Source: Escherichia coli
Lineage (GTDB): Bacteria > Pseudomonadota > Gammaproteobacteria > Enterobacterales > Enterobacteriaceae
Strand: one strand, 5' to 3'
Length of the DNA stretch: 64,000 bases
Assembly: GCF_024223415.1 (NCBI RefSeq)
Contig: NZ_CP100502.1
A program made the position numbers and the translations under genes. Positions 2,444 through 21,187 of this stretch are shown in pieces; position 1 is the first letter of the stretch, and each line of letters starts with the position of its first letter. A model generated the notes under the pieces. It searched no databases. It was not told the origin of the DNA and saw nothing but the letters and a program-made list of their open reading frames with translations.

Positions 2444-3424
2444 ATGAAAATCTTTATTGATGATGGTTCTACCAACATTAAACTTGCCTGGTTGGAGGAT
2501 GGTGACGTGAAAACGTTAATCAGCCCTAACAGCTTTAAACCGGAATGGTCTTTTAGTTTACTGGATGATGCTGCTCCGGCTAATTACGAGATCGACGGCG
2601 AGAAGTTTTCATTTGATCCATTAAGTGCTGATGCTGTCGTAACGACTGAAACACGCTATCAGTACAGTGATGTGAATGTTGTGGCCATTCAGCATGCGCT
2701 ACAGCAGACCGGCCTGAAAGCGCAGCCTGTTGATGTCATCGTCACATTGCCGATCTCTGAATACCTTGACGCCAACAATCAGAAAAATAAGCAAAACATT
2801 GAAAGAAAGAAAAAAAATGTGATGCGTGAAGTACGGGTGCAGGGGAGTGATGCATTTGTTATTCGCAGTGTTTCCGTTCTTCCTGAAAGTATTCCCGCTG
2901 GTTTCAGTGTTCTTGCGGGGCTTGAGGATGATGAATCCCTTTTGATCGTAGATCTCGGTGGTACAACTCTTGATGTGTCGCATGTTCGTAGCAAAATGAC
3001 AGGGATTACAAAAACCTGGTGTGATCCGAATATCGGCGTGTCCCTGATTACATCCGGGGTTAAGGAACAGATGGCTGTACATGCTAATACAAGAGTGAGC
3101 TCATTCCAGGCTGACAATATCATTGTGCACCGTAATGAACCTGACTACCTTTCCCGTCGCATTTATAATGCTGAACAGCGTGAGTCTATCATTAATGTTA
3201 TCAATGAACGGCAGAAGTTGCTTATTAAACGAGTTAATGATGTCATCAGCCGTTTCACCGACTATACACATGTAATGTGTGTTGGTGGTGGGGCTGAAAT
3301 TGTGGCCGAGGCTGTGAAGAACCTGACTAAGGTTCCTGATGAGCGCTTTTATCTGAGCTCATCCCCGCAGTTTGATTTAGTCATGGGAATGATAAAAATG
3401 AAAGGTGGTGTGACTAATGAGTGA
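2444..3424 (+). CDS. parM: ParM/StbA actin-like partition ATPase
   Basis: seq: N-terminus 'MKIFIDDGSTNIKLAW' matches the ParM/StbA phosphate-1 motif; GGAG RBS before ATG 2444 (track ORF from 2375); AT-rich region 2140..2440 upstream. Confidence 0.8.
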   Translation: MKIFIDDGSTNIKLAWLEDGDVKTLISPNSFKPEWSFSLLDDAAPANYEIDGEKFSFDPLSADAVVTTETRYQYSDVNVVAIQHALQQTGLKAQPVDVIVTLPISEYLDANNQKNKQNIERKKKNVMREVRVQGSDAFVIRSVSVLPESIPAGFSVLAGLEDDESLLIVDLGGTTLDVSHVRSKMTGITKTWCDPNIGVSLITSGVKEQMAVHANTRVSSFQADNIIVHRNEPDYLSRRIYNAEQRESIINVINERQKLLIKRVNDVISRFTDYTHVMCVGGGAEIVAEAVKNLTKVPDERFYLSSSPQFDLVMGMIKMKGGVTNE

Positions 3425-3833
3425 TGAAAATAAATCCAGACGCTGCTCATTTGAACTTTTCCCGGATGAACGGACAGGAGATAAGATAGCAGATGAGCTC
3501 ATTGCAAATGAAAAACTGAAGGAGCGGGGACGTTTCATGCGCGCGATGTTAGTTACTGGTGCGGCGTTTGCAGCTATAGATAAACGTCTTCCTTTGCTGA
3601 TATCGGAGTTACTGACAGAAAATACGACTCTGGATGATATTAATAAGGTGATTTCCAGCGTAATACCAGGTGCTTTTTCGGTTGAAAAGAAATTGCTTGA
3701 ATTACTGGAAAAACAATCTGGTCTCCATACGTCTGTGGATTGCAGTACTCCTCTTACAGAGCAGAGTCTGTCGAGAAATGACGGTGAAGACCAGACCAGA
3801 AGAAACGCTGAAAATATGTTCGGAGATGACTGA
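3417..3833 (+). CDS. ParR/StbB-like centromere-binding adaptor
   Basis: seq: 138-aa ORF whose start overlaps the parM stop (translational coupling). infer: by position. Confidence 0.45.
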   Translation: MSDENKSRRCSFELFPDERTGDKIADELIANEKLKERGRFMRAMLVTGAAFAAIDKRLPLLISELLTENTTLDDINKVISSVIPGAFSVEKKLLELLEKQSGLHTSVDCSTPLTEQSLSRNDGEDQTRRNAENMFGDD

Positions 3834-3834
3834 A

Positions 3835-5109
3835 CTAACCCAGCCTGGCCAGGGGAATATCTCGCCATTTAGTTGTATAACACTGACTCAACATTTCCCG
3901 TTTCATTTGCCATTCAGGGGCGGTTCCTCGCCCCGCAAACCACACTTTCCCTTTTCCCGACTGGTTCAGTTCATCGAGTGTTTTCATTAACTTTTCACTG
4001 TTTTTACGGGGCTGGATTTCATCAAATAATCCCGGCTGCGCTATACCCGATGGTGTGAAATCAGCCAGCATGACACCTGCCTTCATATAGCGGTACCCTT
4101 CACGCCAGACATGGTTTAAGGCTCTGCATGCGGCGGCAATAATGTCCCGGCTGTCCTGTGTGGGCAATGGAAGCTTTTCCACAGCGGCATTGCTGTAACA
4201 GGGTTCTTTTACTGCAAAGGGTGATGTCCGTACAAATGTCGTCACCTGCCGGCAATACTGACGCTCCCCACGTAGTTTCTCTGCGGCCCGCTCTGCATAC
4301 TGAACAACAGCCTGGTGCATGGCATCTTTGTCTGTGATTCGTTCACCAAAACTGCGACTACAGACAATCTGCTGTTTTGCCGGTGGTGCTTCTTCCAGGG
4401 ATATGCAGGACTCGCCGTTGAGTTCGCGTACCGTACGCTCAAGAATGACGCTGAAGTTTTTCCGGATGAATGCCGTGTTAGCCTGCGCCAGCTGCAGTGC
4501 TGTGTTAATACCCAGCGCATTCAGCTTTTCCGTCAGTCTGTGTCCTACTCCCCAGACCTCACCAACTGGCTGCAGCCCCAGTAGCTTCAAGATCCGATTA
4601 CGGTTTTCTGCCGTCAGCGCGACCACTCCGGAAAACTGTGGCCATTGCTTTGTTGCCCACTGTGCACTTTTAGCCAGCGTTTTTGTAGGCGCAATGCCCA
4701 CCCCCATGGTGAGTCCTGTCCAGCTCTTTACCTGTTTCCTGAGCTGATGACCAAAAAACTCCGGAGAGATGCAATGATTTATCCCCCGCAAATCAATGAA
4801 CATTTCATCAATTGAGTAGGGCTCAACTGCGGGAGAAAGCGACTCCAGAACAGCCATAACCCGTTGGCTCATGCTGTGGTACAGCGCATAATTGCTGGAA
4901 AATACATGTATTTTCTTCTCCAGGCGCATTTGTCTCACCTGAAACCAGGGCTGCCCCATTCTGATGCCAAGGGCTTTTGCCTCCGGGCTGCGCGCGATCA
5001 CACAGCCATCGTTATTGCTGAGTACGATGACCGGTTCGTTGCGAAGGTCCGGGCGGAAAACTTTTTCACATGAGGCGTAGAAACTGTTGATATCAGCCAG
5101 TGCAAACAT
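3835..5109 (-). CDS. impB: Error-prone translesion polymerase subunit (UmuC family)
   Basis: seq: 424 aa, N-terminus 'MFALADINSFYASCEKVFRPDLRNEPVIVLSNNDGCVIARSPEAKALGI' is the Y-family polymerase signature. known: impCAB is typical of IncI1 plasmids. Confidence 0.9.
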   Translation of the reverse strand: MFALADINSFYASCEKVFRPDLRNEPVIVLSNNDGCVIARSPEAKALGIRMGQPWFQVRQMRLEKKIHVFSSNYALYHSMSQRVMAVLESLSPAVEPYSIDEMFIDLRGINHCISPEFFGHQLRKQVKSWTGLTMGVGIAPTKTLAKSAQWATKQWPQFSGVVALTAENRNRILKLLGLQPVGEVWGVGHRLTEKLNALGINTALQLAQANTAFIRKNFSVILERTVRELNGESCISLEEAPPAKQQIVCSRSFGERITDKDAMHQAVVQYAERAAEKLRGERQYCRQVTTFVRTSPFAVKEPCYSNAAVEKLPLPTQDSRDIIAAACRALNHVWREGYRYMKAGVMLADFTPSGIAQPGLFDEIQPRKNSEKLMKTLDELNQSGKGKVWFAGRGTAPEWQMKREMLSQCYTTKWRDIPLARLG

Positions 5110-5546
5110 CAGCGTAACTCCCGCGTCCTGTGTATCACGTGAGTGACAACACCAAAAATACAGATGTTTTCCGGATACAGTGTGCGGAACTCCGGGCTGT
5201 CTGAAACCGGCTCCAGTGCCGGGCGTGGGCGCAACAGCAGTCGTTTGACGGTGAACTCACCGTCGATCTCAGCGATAACGATGTCCCCGTGTTGTGGTTT
5301 TTCGGCCCTGTCCACTACCAGCAGATCACCATTCTGCACGCCAGCCTGGTTCATCGATTCACCGCTGGCGCGCAGAAAGAAGGTGGCTGCAGGTCTGCTG
5401 ATGCAATAGCTGTTCAGATCCAGTTCCTGCTCAGCATAATCAGTGGCAGGCGAAGGAAAACCGGCCTGGCAACGATCGGCAAACAACGGTCGCACGTAAC
5501 TGTCATCGCCTGAAGGGTCAGCCGGACGGTGATAAACGGTACTCAT
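5109..5546 (-). CDS. impA: UmuD-like LexA-family self-cleaving protein
   Basis: seq: 145 aa with S24-peptidase-like region 'ASGESMNQAGVQNGDLLVVDRAE'; start overlaps the impB region. Confidence 0.85.
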   Translation of the reverse strand: MSTVYHRPADPSGDDSYVRPLFADRCQAGFPSPATDYAEQELDLNSYCISRPAATFFLRASGESMNQAGVQNGDLLVVDRAEKPQHGDIVIAEIDGEFTVKRLLLRPRPALEPVSDSPEFRTLYPENICIFGVVTHVIHRTRELR

Positions 5547-5791
5547 GCTGCAGGCAGCCAGCTGTCGTCCTGCCAGATTTCTTCCAGCAGAGACAGGATA
5601 CGTTCTTTATCCTTGTCGTTGCGGGCTCCTGTGACAGATACAGACGGGGCGCTGCCCTGGTCTATACGCAGCCAGATTTCCGGGTAGTGTGGTTTCAGAC
5701 GTTGTTCGATTTCATTCTGTAGCGCCTGAAGTGTGCCTGATTTGAGGTTTTTTGTGCTCTGGCGGTCGAAAAGAATTTCAATGCGGATCAT
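5543..5791 (-). CDS. impC: ImpC, small first gene of the impCAB operon
   Basis: seq: 82-aa ORF overlapping the impA start. known: size and order match impCAB. Confidence 0.7.
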   Translation of the reverse strand: MIRIEILFDRQSTKNLKSGTLQALQNEIEQRLKPHYPEIWLRIDQGSAPSVSVTGARNDKDKERILSLLEEIWQDDSWLPAA

Positions 5792-5812
5792 GTTCTCATC
5801 TCCCTTTTCTTT

Positions 5813-5832
5813 TGCTGTATGTATATACAGTA
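5813..5832. promoter_or_regulatory. LexA (SOS) box upstream of impC
   Basis: seq: 'tgCTGTatgtatatACAGta' fits CTGT-N8-ACAG about 25 to 40 nt upstream of the impC start. Confidence 0.6.
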
Positions 5833-9726: not shown

Positions 9727-10057
9727 GGAAGTCGCCGCCGGCTCCGCTTTACCCGGCCATGCGGGGCATGGCCTTGTGGGTTTTCAGTTATGTGGCCACC
9801 GTGTCGTGTGCGGGCTGTGCCGTGCCTCCATCTTAGCCGGGCTGGCAGGGATGCAAGGGTACGCTTCGCCGCTGCGGTCACCCGGTCCCTCCTTCCCGTC
9901 TGCCGTGATTTTCCGGTCGTTCACCCGCTCAGATTTCGCGGTCTCACCCTCCAACTCCCGCCAGCCGTGTGCGTCAGGCTGCGGCTTCCCTTGCGCCCTG
10001 TGCATCCCCGCCTTATCGCCCGGCTTTTATGGAGGCACGGCACCGCCCGGTGTCGCG
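9727..10057 (+). repeat. Family-A ssi/Frpo-like repeat, copy A1
   Basis: seq: about 330 nt nearly identical to 16711..17041, GC-rich and hairpin-rich, ending about 30 nt before a gene start. known: IncI1 and F leading regions carry ssi/Frpo single-strand promoters. Confidence 0.6.
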
Positions 10058-10085: not shown

Positions 10086-10511
10086 ATGCAATATGCGAAA
10101 CCTGTCACTCTGAATGTTGAAGAGTGCGACCGTCTGTTTTTTCTGCCTTACCTGTTTGGCCAGGATTTTCTGTATGTCGAAGCGTCTGTGTACGCGCTGG
10201 CGAAAAAAATGATGCCGGAATATGAAGGCGGATTCTGGCACTTCATCCGCCTGCCGGACGGTGGCGGCTACATGATGCCGGATGGCGACCGTTTCCACAT
10301 AGTGAACGGTGCAAACTGGTTTGACCGTACCGTGAGTGCTGATGCCTGCGGCATCATTCTGACTTCCCTTGTGATTAACCGCCAGTTGTGGCTGTACCAC
10401 GACAGCGGTGATGCAGGACTGACCCAGCTTTACCGGATGCGCGATGCGCAGTTGTGGCGTCACATCGAATTTCACCCTGAATGCAACGCGATTTACGCGG
10501 CTCTGGACTGA
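10086..10511 (+). CDS. klcA: KlcA/ArdB-family antirestriction protein
   Basis: seq: 141 aa, '[51 protein letters not shown]' resembles KlcA/ArdB from memory; GGAGG RBS. Confidence 0.65.
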
Positions 10512-11199: not shown

Positions 11200-11905
11200 G
11201 CCCGCGCGAAAACCCCTGGCAGGCTGACGCCTGCCGGAAGGGAAGCGGGCCACGCTGGCGCGTCGCCCGTTACCCTTCCCGTCTGTGATGTGTCTGACTC
11301 AGGAGTGTTTCTTTCTTATGTTATGGAACTGTTCCTGATGTTGTTGTTCCTTTATCTGCTGCTCTGATTCTGACTACTGCAGTGTTGTTCTGTCTGCCGG
11401 GCGCACCTTCGGCTCCCGGCTGCCTGGCGGCATCCGGTCGTCAGGCCCGACTCCGACAGGCAGCTGCTGGCGCACCCGCCAGTCTCCGCCGAACCCGCTG
11501 GCGCGGTTTCGGGCTGTCGCTACGGTCCGATGCGTGAAAACCCGGGCTTGCAGCGACCGTTCCGGTCGCGCCGCCTCTGTCGCGCCGTGACCTGCGCTCC
11601 CTGCACACCTGACGGTGTGTGAGGAAACTGCGCCTGATGGCGCAGCAGTCCTCCCTCCTGCCGCCACCTCTGCGGCCTGTTTCCCGCTGTGGACTTTCCG
11701 GGGGGCAGACGTAACCCCCTCCCGTTCCATCTGTCCAGGGTGAGATGCACCGGCCACAAAATTTTTAGCCATGAACCCGGCAAAAAATTTTGCGTCCGCC
11801 CCCGGACAGCTGTCCCGTGAGGCGGTAAACGGGCCCCCATCGGAAAGGTCCACTGCGGGGAGAAACCCCTGTGAAGTGGACGGCAGGAGGAGCTTTCGCT
11901 CCTCT
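11200..11905 (+). repeat. Family-B ssi/Frpo-like repeat, copy B1
   Basis: seq: long GC-rich repeat shared with 17600..18250 and partly with 20815..21140 (e.g. 'caccttcggctcccggctgcctggcggcatccggtcgtcaggcccgactccgacaggcag'); ends about 70 nt before ssb. Confidence 0.55.
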
Positions 11906-11973
11906 GAAGGGGCACATGAACGTCCCGTCTCCGGTATCCGGTTTATCTCACATCTTTCAGTCAGGAGGTTCTT

Positions 11974-12501
11974 ATGAGTGCACGTGGTATCAACAAGGTC
12001 ATCCTCGTCGGGCGTCTGGGCAATGATCCGGAGGTCCGTTACATCCCCAACGGTGGCGCAGTGGCAAACCTGCAGGTGGCCACGTCAGAAAGCTGGCGCG
12101 ACAAACAGACGGGGGAGATGCGGGAGCAGACGGAATGGCACCGTGTTGTGCTGTTCGGCAAGCTCGCGGAAGTGGCAGGTGAATATCTGCGCAAGGGCGC
12201 GCAGGTCTACATCGAGGGGCAACTCCGTACCCGTAGCTGGGACGACAACGGCATCACCCGCTACATCACTGAAATTCTTGTTAAGACCACGGGCACCATG
12301 CAGATGCTGGGGAGTGCACCACAGCAGAACGCTCAGGCGCAACCGAAGCCTCAGCAGAATGGGCAGCCACAGAGTGCTGACGCGACGAAAAAAGGTGGCG
12401 CGAAAACGAAAGGCCGTGGACGTAAGGCCGCGCAGCCCGAGCCTCAGCCGCAAACGCCGGAGGGGGAGGATTACGGGTTTTCAGACGACATCCCGTTCTG
12501 A
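11974..12501 (+). CDS. ssb: Plasmid single-stranded DNA-binding protein
   Basis: seq: '[48 protein letters not shown]...' is the canonical SSB OB-fold, with Gln/Pro-rich tail ending 'DIPF'; AGGAGG RBS. Confidence 0.95.
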
Positions 12502-12516
12502 TCGGGCTGACTGTGA

Positions 12517-12792
<276 letters not shown>

Positions 12793-12850
12793 GAGAGGTG
12801 CCGGACGCGCGAACGTCCGGCAGGACATAAGCAATTATAAGGGGATGATT

Positions 12851-14809
12851 ATGCCTGTAACGAAGTGTGAACCAGAAACCACCCGCAAAGCAAGCCGTAA
12901 ATCTGCAAAAACGCAGGAAACTGCCCTGTCTGCCCTGCTGGCGCAGACGGAGGAAGTGAGCGTGCCGCTGGCCTCACTGATTAAATCACCGCTGAATGTG
13001 CGCACGGTGCCGTATTCTGTGGAGTCCGTCAGCGAACTGGCTGGGTCCATTAAGGGCGTTGGCCTGTTGCAGAATCTGGTCGTGCATACCCTGCCTGGTG
13101 ACCGTTACGGTGTCGCCGCAGGTGGTCGCCGACTGGCTGCACTCAACATGCTGGCAGAGCGCAACATCCTTCCGGCTGACTGGCCTGTCCGTGTGAAGGT
13201 CATCCCGCAGGAACTGGCGACTGCCGCATCGATGACCGAGAACGGTCATCGTCGGGATATGCACCCTGCCGAACAGATTGCCGGATTCCGCGCATTGGCG
13301 CAGGAAGGCAAAACACCTGCACAGACTGGCGACCTGCTGGGCTATTCACCCCGCCACGTTCAGCGAATGCTGAAACTGGCAGACCTTGCGCCTGTCATCC
13401 TCGATGCGCTGGCAGAGGACCGCATCACCACCGAGCACTGTCAGGCGCTGGCGCTGGAGAGCGACACCGCGCGTCAGGTGCAGGTGTTTGAAGCGGCCTG
13501 CCAGTCAGGATGGGGCGGTAAACCGGATGTGCGGGTTATCCGCAACCTGATTACGGAAAGTGAAGTGGCAGTGAAGGACAACACTAAATTCCGCTTTGTG
13601 GGGGCTGATGCCTTCTCGCCAGACGAATTGCGCACCGATTTGTTCAGCGATGACGGGGACGGTTATGTCGACCGCGTGGCGCTCGATGCCGCCCTGCTGG
13701 AAAAACTCCAGGCTGTTGCAGAGTTCCTTCGGGAAGCCGAAGGCTGGGAATGGTGCGCCGGGCGCATGGAGCCTGTCGGTGAGTGCCGTGAGGATGCCGG
13801 AACATACCGCTGTCTGCCGGAGCCGGAAGCGGTGCTGACGGAGGCGGAAGACGAACGCCTGAACGAACTGATGACGCGTTACGACGCGCTGGAAAACCAG
13901 TGTGAGGAATCCGACCTGCTGGAAGCAGAAATGAAGCTGATGCGCTGCATGGCGAAGGTCAGAGCGTGGACGCCGGAGATACGTGCCGGAAGCGGTGTGG
14001 TGGTGTCCTGGCGTTATGGCAACGTATGTGTCCAGCGTGGTGTGCAGTTGCGCAGTGAAGATGACGCGACTGACGACGCTGACCGCACGGAACAGGTGCA
14101 GGAGAAAGCGTCAGTGGAGGAAATCAGCCTGCCGTTGCTGACGAAAATGTCCTCAGAGCGCACGCTGGCAGTCCAGGCGGCACTCATGCAGCAGCCGGAC
14201 AAATCTCTGGCACTGCTGGCATGGACGCTCTGCCTGAATGTGTTTGGCAGCGGGGCGTACAGTAAACCAGCACAAATCAGCCTGGAATGTGAACATTATT
14301 CGCTGACCAGCGATGCGCCATCGGGGAAGGAAGGTGCCGCATTCATGGCGCTGATGGCAGAAAAATCCCGTCTTGCAGCCCTGCTGCCGGAGGGATGGTC
14401 ACGGGACATGACGACATTCCTGTCCCTCAGTCAGGAGGTGCTGTTATCCCTGCTCAGTTTCTGCACCGCATGCAGCCTTAACGGTGTCCAGACCCGTGAG
14501 TGTGGTCACACGTCACGCAGTCCGCTTGACTCGCTGGAAAGCGCTATCGGATTCCACATGCGCGACTGGTGGCAGCCGACAAAAGCAAACTTCTTCGGAC
14601 ACCTGAAAAAGCCGCAGATTATCGCAGCCCTGAATGAGGCCGGACTGTCCGGTGCCGCACGGGACGCGGAGAAGATGAAGAAAGGTGATGCGGCTGAACA
14701 TGCAGAGCACCATATGAAAGACAACCGCTGGGTTCCAGGCTGGATGTGTGCACCACATCCACAGACAGATGCCACTGAACGCACCGATAACCTGGCTGAT
14801 GCCGCCTGA
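12851..14809 (+). CDS. Large ParB/Sulfiredoxin-domain (ParB-like nuclease) protein
   Basis: seq: N-terminal ParB-like region 'LIKSPLNVRTVPYSVESVSELAGSIKGVGLLQNLVVH...GGRRLAALNML'; AAGGGG RBS before ATG 12851 (track from 12761). known: a large ParB-like gene sits between ssb and psiB in F/IncI leading regions. Confidence 0.7.
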   Translation: MPVTKCEPETTRKASRKSAKTQETALSALLAQTEEVSVPLASLIKSPLNVRTVPYSVESVSELAGSIKGVGLLQNLVVHTLPGDRYGVAAGGRRLAALNMLAERNILPADWPVRVKVIPQELATAASMTENGHRRDMHPAEQIAGFRALAQEGKTPAQTGDLLGYSPRHVQRMLKLADLAPVILDALAEDRITTEHCQALALESDTARQVQVFEAACQSGWGGKPDVRVIRNLITESEVAVKDNTKFRFVGADAFSPDELRTDLFSDDGDGYVDRVALDAALLEKLQAVAEFLREAEGWEWCAGRMEPVGECREDAGTYRCLPEPEAVLTEAEDERLNELMTRYDALENQCEESDLLEAEMKLMRCMAKVRAWTPEIRAGSGVVVSWRYGNVCVQRGVQLRSEDDATDDADRTEQVQEKASVEEISLPLLTKMSSERTLAVQAALMQQPDKSLALLAWTLCLNVFGSGAYSKPAQISLECEHYSLTSDAPSGKEGAAFMALMAEKSRLAALLPEGWSRDMTTFLSLSQEVLLSLLSFCTACSLNGVQTRECGHTSRSPLDSLESAIGFHMRDWWQPTKANFFGHLKKPQIIAALNEAGLSGAARDAEKMKKGDAAEHAEHHMKDNRWVPGWMCAPHPQTDATERTDNLADAA

Positions 14810-14863
14810 TGAACAACCACACCGCCCCGCCGGAGACGGGGCGGCAGCAAGGGAGATACCGTG

Positions 14864-15298
14864 ATGAAAACTGAACTGACCCTGAATGCCCTGCAGTCCA
14901 TGAACGCACAGGAATATGAAGATATCCGTGCTGCGGGAAGCGATATGCGCCGTAATCTCACTCACGAGGTGATGCGTGAAGTGGACGCACCGGCTAACTG
15001 GATGATGAATGGCGAGTATGGCAGTGAGTTCGGGGGCTTTTTCCCCGTCCAGGTTCGTTTCACGCCAGCCCACGAACGTTTCCACCTGGCATTATGTTCG
15101 CCGGGAGACGTCTCTCAGCTCTGGATGCTGGTTCTGGTGAATTGTGGTGGACAGCCTTTCGCCGTCGTTCAGGTGCAACATATCTTCACGCCTGTCGCTA
15201 TCAGTCACACGCTGGCGCTTGCCGCGACACTTGATGCGCAGGGGTACAGTGTTAACGACATCATCCATATCCTGATGGCAGAAGGAGGTCAGGCATGA
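14864..15298 (+). CDS. psiB: Plasmid SOS-inhibition protein B
   Basis: seq: 144 aa '[32 protein letters not shown]...' recognised as PsiB; GGGAGA RBS; overlaps psiA by ATGA. Confidence 0.9.
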
Positions 15299-16014
15299 GC
15301 GCACGTTCACGGGCACTGATCCCCCTCAGCGCAGAGCAACAGGCCGCCATGCAGGCTGTGGCTGTCACCGAACAACGTCGTCGTCAGGGACGCACACTTT
15401 CAGCATGGCCTTATGCCAGCGCTTTCTTTCGCTGCCTGAATGGCAGTCGCCGGATTTCGCTGACCGATCTCCGCTTTTTTGCTCCTGCGCTGACGAAGGA
15501 GGAATTTCATGGCAACCGTCTCCTGTGGCTGGCTGCCGTGGATAAACTGATTGAAAGTTTTGGTGAAGTCTGTGTTCTTCCCCTGCCATCCGATGCGGGG
15601 CATCGTCTGTTCCCGTCCGTTCCTTTTCGTGAAGGTGAGCGGCGTCGTCAGAAAACCACGCTGACAGAGCAGAAATACAGCCGCCAGCGGGAACGTGAGG
15701 CAGAACGACGGGAACTGGAATACCAGACATGTTTTGCTCAGGCGCAGATTGACCTTGCGTTTCATACTCCCGCCACGGTCGGAAGCTGGTTGTCCCGCTG
15801 GTCTGGTGTTGTTGAGGAGCATGATCTGGAAACGATTTTCTGGGGGTGGTGCGGGCGTTTTCCATCACTGTCATCATTTGACCGGTTTTTCTGGCAGGAG
15901 GAACCACTCTGGCGGCTGATTTTTGAAGCCGGTGAGGCCGGTCGTGGTGCACCGGTACAGGTACGTGCACTTGAGCAGTGGATGATCCCGAACAAGCTGG
16001 AGAACGCAATATGA
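15295..16014 (+). CDS. psiA: Plasmid SOS-inhibition protein A
   Basis: seq: 239 aa directly coupled to psiB; size and position match PsiA. Confidence 0.85.
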
Positions 16015-16607
16015 TGAAATCAGACGAACAATATCAGGTTCCCGTGTGGATGCGACCTCTGTTGCCGTTGCTCTGCAATACCGGTGGTAATGATCCGGAG
16101 GAACTGCTGAATGATACAGAAACCACCGCCAGTGCGAATATTGTCCGTTATGTACTGATAGTTGCAGTGCGGTCGCAGATTGATCTGCTGCAGCTACTGT
16201 ACAGGAAAGGACTGTTGCGCACAGAGATACCAGGTGGCTTTTCACCGGAAGAAGCGCAGGAACTCCTGGATAATCTGGTGCGCAGCCATATCAGCAAGGC
16301 GTTGTCGGGTGAGCGAATGGCAGCCCGTGACAGAAATGCCGATCTGACCTGGATTCGCCAGCAACTGGTCGATGCCGCCTGGTTTGTCCGTGCCACACTG
16401 GAAGCGCATGGGATGGGCGTCGGAAATGAGAGTCCCTCTGCTCCGCCGGAGACAATGCCGGACATACAGACACGGGAACTGGTTATGTTGATCAAGCGAC
16501 TGGCATCATCGCTGAAAGCGGTGAAACCCGACAGTAGCGTGGTGCGTGAAGCGCAGGACTGGCTGTGCGACAGAAAACTTGTGGATATCACAGATATTCT
16601 CCGGTGA
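16011..16607 (+). CDS. Hypothetical protein
   Basis: seq: ATG 16011 overlaps the psiA stop (track ORF from 15978). Confidence 0.45.
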   Translation: MMKSDEQYQVPVWMRPLLPLLCNTGGNDPEELLNDTETTASANIVRYVLIVAVRSQIDLLQLLYRKGLLRTEIPGGFSPEEAQELLDNLVRSHISKALSGERMAARDRNADLTWIRQQLVDAAWFVRATLEAHGMGVGNESPSAPPETMPDIQTRELVMLIKRLASSLKAVKPDSSVVREAQDWLCDRKLVDITDILR

Positions 16608-16710
16608 ACCAGACATGTATATTTTACGCAGGGACACGCCGATCATGATCGTTTCATATCAGGGGTGGTCTGGAGGTCATGCGGCGTGTCCTCTGCACTC
16701 GCCGGAATAA

Positions 16711-17041
16711 GGAAGTCGCCGGCGGCTCCGCTTTTACCCGGCCATGCGGGGCATGGCCTTGTGGGTTTTCAGCTCTGTGGCCTCAGCGTCGTGTGCGGGC
16801 TGTGCCGTGCCTCCATCTTAGCCGGGCTGGCAGGGATGCAAGGGTACGCTTCGCCGCTGCGGTCACCCGGTCCCTCCTTCCCGTCTGCCGTGATTTTCCG
16901 GTCGTTCACCCGCTCAGATTTCGCGGTCTCACCCTCCAACTCCCGCCAGCCGTGTGCGTCAGGCTGCGGCTTCCCTTGCGCCCTGTGCATCCCCGCCTTA
17001 TCGCCCGGCTTTTATGGAGGCACGGCACCGCCCGGTGTCGC
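16711..17041 (+). repeat. Family-A ssi/Frpo-like repeat, copy A2
   Basis: seq: near-identical to 9727..10057; ends about 30 nt before ardA. Confidence 0.6.
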
Positions 17042-17599: not shown

Positions 17600-18250
17600 C
17601 CTGCCAGGCCGCCGGAAAACCCTGGCAGGCTTACGCCTGCCTGAAATGCAGGAGGGCCGCGCCTGCGGCGCTGCCCTTCCTGCCCGTCATGGTGTGAGGC
17701 ATTTTTCTGTTATGTCGTTTCTGTTGTTCTGATTTCCGGAGGCGGGGACACCTTCGGCTCCCGGCTGCCTGGCGGCATCCGGTCGTCAGGCCCGACTCCG
17801 ACAGGCAGCTGCTGGCGCACCCGCCAGTCTCCGCCGAACCCGCTGGCGCGGTTTCGGGCTGCCGCTACGGTCCGATGTCTGAAAAACCAGGCTTGCAGCG
17901 ACCGTTCCGGTCGCGCCGCCCCTGTCGCGCCGGAAACGGCGCTCCCTGCACACCTTACGGTGTGTAAGGCAACTGCGCCTGATGGCGCAGTCAACCCTTC
18001 CGCCGCCACCCCTGCGGCCTGTTTCCCGCTGTGGACTTTCCGGGGGCTGGAGTAACCACATCCCGTTTCAGCAGTCCAGGGGAAGATATACCGTCCACAA
18101 AATTTTTAGCCATAAACCCGGCAAAAAATTTTGCGTCCGCCCCCGGACAGCTGCCCCGTGACGTGGTGACGGACGCCCCATCGGAAAGGTCCACTGCGGG
18201 GAGAAACCCCGAAGAAGTGGACGGCAGAAGGGGCTTTCGCCCCTCCGGGG
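17600..18250 (+). repeat. Family-B ssi/Frpo-like repeat, copy B2
   Basis: seq: aligns along its length with 11200..11905; starts right after the ardA stop. Confidence 0.55.
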
Positions 18251-20814: not shown

Positions 20815-21140
20815 GTCGCGCCGGATGCGGCGCTCCCTGCACACCTTACGGTGTGTAAGGCCACTGCGCCTGATGGCGCAGCTGTCTCTGCCTGTCTGCC
20901 GCCGCACTGCGGCCTGTTCTCCGCAGATGGACTTTCCGGGGGTACATACACGACCACATCCCGTTTCAGTCGTCCAGGGGAGAGATGTACCAGCCACAAA
21001 ACTTTTTGCCGCAGGCGTCAAAAACTTTTGCGTCTGCCCCCGGACAACTGCCCCGTGACGTGGTGAGCGTCCCCCGTCGGAAAGGTCCACTGCGGGGAAA
21101 TCCCCGAAGACCCGGACGGCAGAAGGAGCTTCGCTCCTCC
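20815..21140 (+). repeat. Family-B ssi/Frpo-like repeat, copy B3 (5'-truncated)
   Basis: seq: matches the 3' two-thirds of B1/B2 from 'ggcgctccctgcacaccttacggtgtgtaagg' onward. Confidence 0.5.
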
Positions 21141-21187
21141 GGGAAATGACCTGGCTGACCCGGCAGTCGTGACGATGAGGAGACAAT

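Follow-up and report, generated by a model that had tools for sequence, protein, structure and literature searches.

The closest described relative of the gene considered here is yfjB of the F plasmid, also known as yubM (UniProt Q9S4W2), as parB2 in work from the Christie laboratory, and most recently as herB. Its product was characterised and renamed HerB by Virolle et al. in a preprint of 7 July 2026 (PMC13370423). The gene itself occupies positions 12851–14809 on the + strand of a 64,000-nucleotide stretch of Escherichia coli contig NZ_CP100502.1 (assembly GCF_024223415.1), referred to below as the window, and encodes a 652-residue protein with a ParB-like N-terminal part. It is the IncI1 orthologue, yfhA, of yfjB/yubM/parB2/herB, and probably encodes a zygotically made, cytidine triphosphate (CTP)-type clamp that acts on the recipient chromosome and eases plasmid establishment.

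HerB of F is undetectable in donors and appears in transconjugants, where it is expressed from Frpo2. The protein is a homodimer whose subunits are divided into D1 (residues 1–136), D2 (137–235), D3 (238–417), and D4 (418–652). A 2.6 Å crystal structure of D1–D2 contains CTPgammaS-Mg, bound via Box II (G91–A97) and a Box III that includes E130. Cryo-electron microscopy of D4 at 3.6 Å revealed a new domain-swapped dimerisation core, giving a V-shaped and sometimes ring-closed particle. R94, E130, R168/R172/K175, and D4 are all required for HerB foci, which lie on the nucleoid and do not require the plasmid. Chromatin immunoprecipitation sequencing (ChIP-seq) identified 156 chromosomal regions upon ectopic expression and 20 in real matings. 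The regions share neither a consensus motif nor a parS-like repeat, and F was not enriched. Expression of 866 host genes is altered by HerB. Deletion of herB leaves the conjugation frequency the same, raises the cost of plasmid acquisition by ~10%, and causes multi-day transfer competitions to be lost (PMC13370423).

Earlier work on the same protein showed that YfjB-sfGFP is produced early and transiently from a single-stranded DNA (ssDNA) promoter, in synchrony with Ssb, YfjA, and PsiB and while the plasmid is still single-stranded (PMC9849209). For ParB2, the homologue in the F-like plasmid pED208, a 2021 study showed passage of a Cre fusion through the type IV secretion system (T4SS), and parB2 deletion alters neither transfer nor mating-induced SOS (PMC8406263). 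The IncI-gamma copy was named yfhA by Benz and Hall (PNAS 2023), who studied plasmids p1ESBL and p15ESBL. IncI plasmids carry three elements, ssi1–3, of which ssi3 lies upstream of ssb and drives the ssb-yfhA-psiB-psiA operon in IncI-gamma. During experimental evolution, yfhA or ssi3 repeatedly acquired loss-of-function mutations in parallel, and yfhA deletion gave a higher transfer rate in one clinical host strain with no effect in another (PMC10104558). The p1ESBL/p15ESBL gene is the same gene as that of the window, in the same ssi3 operon and the same plasmid group, but its phenotype does not fit a simple benefit. Separately, a study of an IncI1 plasmid found that expression of leading-region operons had risen by as much as ~500-fold 15 min after transfer, and named ssb and psiB among the induced genes (PMC12672017). 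Early induction of these two genes indicates that their operon is induced on the IncI1 plasmid too.

The window protein aligns with the F yfjB product (NC_002483) without gaps, with 606 of 652 residues identical (93%, BLASTP), so that all four HerB domains are covered at full length. Of the 46 substitutions, 9 fall within the 23 residues of the disordered N-terminal tail and 15 within the 182 of D3, the two densest stretches. D4 has 11 differences in 219 residues (95% identity) and the last 16 residues (637–652) are identical. The ratio of nonsynonymous to synonymous substitution rates between the two genes is 0.16 overall and at most 0.29 in every segment, which indicates that the whole protein, including its unannotated C-terminal two-thirds, is under purifying selection. 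Every residue tested in F HerB is identical here, namely GGRRLAA 91–97, E130, R168, R172, and K175. The two proteins also share neighbours (ssb, DUF905, psiB, and psiA) and a similar type of upstream ssDNA promoter, and differ in backbone, with F HerB on an IncF plasmid and the window on an IncI1 plasmid (MOBP/MPF_I).

The start of the gene can be assigned with the help of F. The longest open frame at the locus runs from 12761 to 14809 and would encode 682 residues, whereas the listing of open reading frames (ORFs) also gives the 652-residue form. The shorter form is favoured because a Shine-Dalgarno sequence (AAGGGG, 12839–12844) lies 6 nt 5' of the ATG at 12851, because translation of F yfjB begins at the equivalent ATG behind GGGAGG with the in-frame stretch upstream closed by stop codons, and because the RefSeq product (WP_021265661.1) has 652 residues. 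The 682-residue form, longer by 30 upstream codons (12761–12850), is frequent in public gene calls, and its extension runs into the 3' end of the DUF905 gene. This form seems to be an artefact of gene prediction.

The domain layout follows that of HerB. D1 (12851–13258, + strand) comprises a flexible N-terminal tail and the ParB CTP-binding domain, with Box II GGRRLAA at residues 91–97 and Box III MTENG at 128–132, both unchanged from F. From these motifs, a CTP-binding pocket equivalent to that of HerB, with R94 and E130 in place, is predicted. D2 (13259–13555, + strand) is the ParB helix-turn-helix (HTH) with its DNA-contacting residues R168, R172, and K175. The Pfam matches fall in these two domains, ParB_N at residues 43–131 (E = 1.7e-6) and HTH_ParB at 136–222 (E = 2.3e-7), and the remaining ~430 residues have no Pfam match. 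NCBIfam models for partition proteins, Noc, and PRTRC-ParB match only the first ~240 residues, with all but Noc ending by residue 214, and all score under their cut-offs, far under except for the generic ParB domain model. Membership of PRTRC_parB or PRK13832 was rejected, as these matches cover only the N-terminal ~170 residues with scores far under the cut-offs. In a sequence search of the PDB only the N-terminal and HTH regions of Spo0J, ParB, and Noc were matched, the best being Spo0J 1vz0 (E = 8e-17, residues 25–202). The phage orthologous group phrog_7783, by comparison, matches the full length of the protein (E = 5e-255). An earlier note on this stretch, made from the sequence without database searches, had described about 450 residues without obvious motifs behind the ParB-like domain, and these searches bear it out.

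D3 (residues 238–417; 13562–14101, + strand) is a family-specific alpha/beta linker domain, and D4 (residues 418–652 and the stop codon; 14102–14809, + strand) is a helical dimerisation and nucleoid-association domain ending in the C-terminal tail. A full-length AlphaFold2 model from the single sequence was discarded, with a predicted local distance difference test score of 40.6, and a D3–D4 model built on an alignment of 84 sequences was used instead. The monomer model is confident, and the AFDB50 neighbours of D4 are all YubM-family proteins. By similarity to F, D4 of the window protein would form a domain-swapped dimer as in F HerB.

The D3–D4 module marks a large family. A search with this module alone against 1.84 billion representative proteins returned 2149 clusters at E ≤ 1e-3, of which 1070 remain at E ≤ 1e-10. 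Among the 150 matches listed, nearly all full-length ones are 600–720 residues long with the module at ~230–650, which indicates the same architecture across the family; the rest are mostly fragments. Across 84 family representatives G91, R94, and N131 never vary, E130 is retained by 83, and N49 and R51 by 82, which indicates that the CTP switch is a family-wide feature. HTH positions 172 and 175 remain basic or polar, and conservation is poor over the first 40 residues and the final 12. A phage search with D3–D4 gave one weak match, which suggests that this is essentially a plasmid family. Plasmid homologues in Sinorhizobium and Brucella, with ~30% identity to the window protein, are orphans with no adjacent ParA. 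The context of distant homologues was taken from annotated plasmids; the contigs for two homologues were only 3–5 kb and uninformative. In both the Sinorhizobium and Brucella plasmids the gene adjoins ligD, which encodes a non-homologous end joining ligase, with DUF736 genes nearby; genes for a thermonuclease and for an ArdC-like (zincin-like metallopeptidase) protein are also present in one of the two. The recurring ligD/DUF736 neighbourhood is unlike the enterobacterial ssb/psiB context.

Outside the HerB family, the nearest parallels are ParB-type proteins that do not serve in segregation. KorB of RK2 and Noc of Bacillus, like HerB, employ a ParB CTPase and HTH in regulatory or nucleoid-related roles, and both types were recovered in the PDB search (Noc structures at E = 1e-10, KorB weakly at E = 0.11). 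They load at specific sites on their own replicon (OB sites and NBS, respectively), whereas HerB targets the host chromosome and is not known to load at a specific site, and the D3–D4 dimerisation module is unrelated to, and much larger than, that of KorB and Noc. Chromosomal ParB/Spo0J shares with the window protein the N-terminal CTP-binding domain and HTH, but the window protein is without a ParA partner or a ParB-type C-terminal domain, and the canonical parS does not exceed chance in the window.

The operon context is also that of HerB, with the gene in the leading region 3' of a putative ssDNA promoter. An ssi3/Frpo-type repeat of ~500 nt lies upstream of ssb at 11398–11904 (- strand), recognised by its repetition, its similarity to F, and its folding as DNA. 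It is one of three dispersed copies (11398–11904, 17743–18245, and 20815–21143) of ~330–500 nt that are 83–94% identical, each upstream of a + strand leading-region gene block. Patches of the first copy are 82–95% identical to Frpo2 and Frpo1 of F, although those shared with Frpo2 are short. An imperfect hairpin of ~180 nt is predicted for the - strand of 11480–11860 folded as DNA (-119 kcal/mol, z = -8.6), with none of 100 shuffled sequences as stable. This hairpin-forming strand is the transferred strand and the template for the + strand genes. A scan for sigma-70-like promoters on the + strand from 11300 to 16800 found none. The three copies fit the ssi1–3/Frpo-type single-stranded promoters of IncI and F plasmids. 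The probable early expression proposed in the earlier note is in keeping with what is known for F YfjB (PMC9849209) and for ssb and psiB of IncI1 (PMC12672017), from which zygotic induction of the window gene would follow.

Based on these data and the literature on F and IncI plasmids, the following course of events would be expected. As the transferred strand enters the recipient, the ssi3 hairpin would act as a promoter, giving a brief pulse of the protein ahead of, and immediately following, synthesis of the second strand. It would dimerise through the C-terminal D4, with each arm carrying a ParB-type CTP-binding domain and HTH, and with CTP would form a clamp-like assembly on double-stranded DNA. 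In F, this assembly forms on the recipient chromosome rather than the plasmid, at ~156 regions that lack a parS-like motif. Expression of hundreds of host genes would shift and the transient growth cost of plasmid acquisition would drop, with no role for HerB/YfhA in plasmid segregation. For the IncI1 protein, CTP binding, dimer architecture, chromosome binding, and the transcriptional and fitness effects are carried over by analogy with the F orthologue. The CTPase or clamp option of the earlier note agrees with the CTP-type motifs GGRRLAA and ENxxR and with the CTPgammaS-bound, clamp-like dimer of F (PMC13370423).

Several points weigh against this account. The mechanism comes from a single preprint that is not peer reviewed, and much of its omics data derives from ectopic expression, with only 20 chromosomal peaks in real matings (PMC13370423). 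The transcriptional effects of HerB may be direct or indirect, and it is not known to have a loading site or loading partner. In addition, loss of yfhA function was repeatedly selected and deletion raised transfer in one host only (PMC10104558). This host-dependent phenotype implies that the protein is not uniformly beneficial and that its net effect depends on the host.

One way in which HerB could reach DNA without a sequence motif is through a loading determinant encoded in the same operon, or through a DNA structure, although this is doubtful. Candidate loaders would be the DUF905 protein (YfjA/YkfF), or DNA with a hairpin or a single-/double-strand junction, for example the ssi elements while the second strand is being made. 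If so, the protein would touch the incoming plasmid for minutes and then spread to the chromosome, and the host-strain-specific cost of yfhA in IncI could reflect conflict with host factors at the loading points.

A related but distinct alternative is that the clamp coats or marks the incoming plasmid itself, at the duplex, the single-/double-strand junctions, or the ssi hairpins, protecting it from nucleases and defence systems or aiding its establishment. The gene lies among anti-restriction and anti-SOS genes (klcA-like, ardA, psiB, and ssb), is expressed before the plasmid becomes double-stranded (PMC9849209), and has a homologue for which evidence of an anti-defence-related function has been cited (PMC10104558). 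Furthermore, the mating ChIP was taken 1.5 h after mixing, so binding lasting minutes could be missed (PMC13370423). However, F is not enriched in ChIP-seq, HerB foci are identical without any plasmid, and plasmid positioning is unchanged upon deletion (PMC13370423), while conjugation frequency is the same in the F and pED208 deletions (PMC13370423, PMC8406263). The PADLOC matches (E = 0.02–0.03, on the ParB_N part) are not meaningful, and yfjB, yubM, yfhA, and partition proteins are absent from the text of the 2024 paper on leading-region anti-defence. The role on incoming DNA favoured by the earlier note is therefore contradicted by the available ChIP and imaging data, in which the sites bound in transconjugants are those of the host chromosome, and this alternative is unlikely. 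An involvement in SOS, also raised there, finds no support in pED208, where mating-induced SOS is unchanged by parB2 deletion (PMC8406263).

It is very unlikely that the protein acts mainly as a pre-made effector injected from the donor by type IV secretion and not through zygotic synthesis. Cre-ParB2 was the best translocated of six pED208 maintenance proteins, at ~1e-3 recombinants per donor (PMC8406263), and the tail at 637–652 is 100% conserved between F and IncI1 despite being variable across the family. Translocation was, however, measured with an over-expressed Cre fusion, and YfjB is undetectable in donors and made de novo in transconjugants in a Frpo2-dependent manner (PMC9849209, PMC13370423).

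Still less probable is the nuclease or nickase option, also listed in the earlier note, in which a ParB/sulfiredoxin-fold enzyme akin to Osa or the ParB-like nucleases would cleave host or competing DNA. The fold is common to some nucleases and some database entries label relatives as a "ParB-like nuclease". ParB/sulfiredoxin-fold nucleases would be expected to carry a catalytic motif in place of the CTP-binding GxxRxxA/ENxxR motifs. Box II GxxRxxA and Box III ENxxR of CTP-binding ParBs are invariant or nearly so across this family and the best PDB matches are the Spo0J, ParB, and Noc clamps. No nuclease or nickase activity is reported in the literature, where CTPgammaS-Mg is present in the crystals of the F protein and neither DNA damage nor an SOS phenotype is described (PMC13370423, PMC8406263).

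The 64-kb window contains four matches to the canonical 16-bp parS with three mismatches against 2.2 expected, a count for the canonical sequence only, so a non-canonical site is possible. A relic ParA-activating N-terminal peptide ("ALSALL" aligned to "GLEALL" of Spo0J) was considered and dropped, as the region is poorly conserved in the family (mean column conservation 0.19–0.26 across the 84 representatives). The idea of a conventional centromere-binding ParB with a ParA partner and parS, which the earlier note had likewise set aside, is scarcely credible: although a genuine ParB CTPase and HTH make up the first 220 residues, as in type Ia ParABS systems, and public annotation reads "ParB/RepB/Spo0J family partition protein", the neighbours are DUF905 and psiB with no adjacent ParA, the only ParA-type gene lies ~11 kb away with its own small partner ORF, the plasmid already has ParA-type and ParM-type systems, the dimerisation domains of ParB proteins have no relation to the C-terminal half, the distant alphaproteobacterial homologues are orphans too, and the gene is silent in established donors with F positioning unaffected by its deletion (PMC9849209, PMC13370423).

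The remainder of the locus fits an IncI1-like leading region. The first 29.1 kb of the window is 99.8–99.96% identical to pESBL-305 (NC_024979.1), a conjugative plasmid typed IncI-gamma/K1 (IncI1-like) with MOBP/MPF_I. The operon begins with ssb (11974–12501, + strand), encoding the plasmid single-stranded DNA-binding protein and annotated in pESBL-305, followed by a DUF905 gene encoding 77 residues (12559–12792, + strand; yfjA in F, ykfF in IncI) that is annotated in pESBL-305 and F and whose product has no NCBIfam match. Next come the ParB-like gene, psiB (14864–15298, + strand), encoding the conjugation SOS inhibitor, psiA (15295–16014, + strand), both ORFs also annotated in pESBL-305, and an ORF at 16011–16607. 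Further on lies ardA, with nikA/nikB past the origin of transfer (oriT), and the genes from ssb through nikA/nikB are all listed on the + strand. The gene had been placed at a fixed position between ssb and psiB, and this location holds, except that the DUF905 gene intervenes after ssb. The ORF at 16011–16607 encodes 198 residues, is hypothetical in pESBL-305, and has no NCBIfam match. Given its overlap with the psiA stop codon it looks translationally coupled to psiA, and it seems to close the ssi3 operon.

GC-rich hairpins are present in the spacers on both sides of the ParB-like gene. The 5' hairpin (12797–12826; GCCGGACG-N6-CGTCCGGC) is also found in F, and the 3' hairpin lies at 14822–14846 (CCGCCCCG-N7-CGGGGCGG). 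With no T-run after either hairpin on the + strand, a role as terminators is not obvious, and they could affect mRNA stability or serve as structural elements in ssDNA. In a closely related IncI plasmid, NZ_CP053678.1, the IS21-family element ISEc12 sits in psiA just 3' of psiB, equivalent to ~15300–16000 of the window. The ParB-like gene is not the site of this insertion and is intact there.

A second repeat family of 300 nt occurs at 9748–10047 and 16733–17032, with copies 98% identical. They lie just upstream of a klcA-like antirestriction gene (10086–10511) and of ardA, respectively. The first copy falls within the window segment 9700–10100, for which identity to F (4372–4770) is 97.8%, and the - strand of the repeat folds into a long hairpin (-89.9 kcal/mol, z = -5.6). 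This repeat may be a second class of ssDNA promoter, of the kind sought upstream of the KlcA operon in PMC12672017.

Both dedicated partition systems that had been reported elsewhere in the window are present. The first consists of a ParA-type ATPase (991–1635) and a small ORF (1722–2030), and the second of ParM (2444–3424) and a stability protein (3417–3833). Between the ParM locus and the leading region lies an impCAB-like cluster on the - strand (3835–5830) encoding a Y-family polymerase, a UmuD-like protein, and a DinI-like protein.

The F orthologue of this gene has already been solved and characterised and the IncI gene named and genetically studied, and the analysis adds no biology that is not already in the HerB preprint of 2026 or the yfhA study of 2023. 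Its practical value is one of annotation. The segment carrying the gene is found in >5000 PLSDB plasmids, and the gene is in well over 5000 sequenced enterobacterial resistance plasmids, for which the databases nearly always give "partition protein". This label is misleading, and its correction would steer experiments on IncI1 plasmids, which are major carriers of extended-spectrum β-lactamases in poultry and humans.
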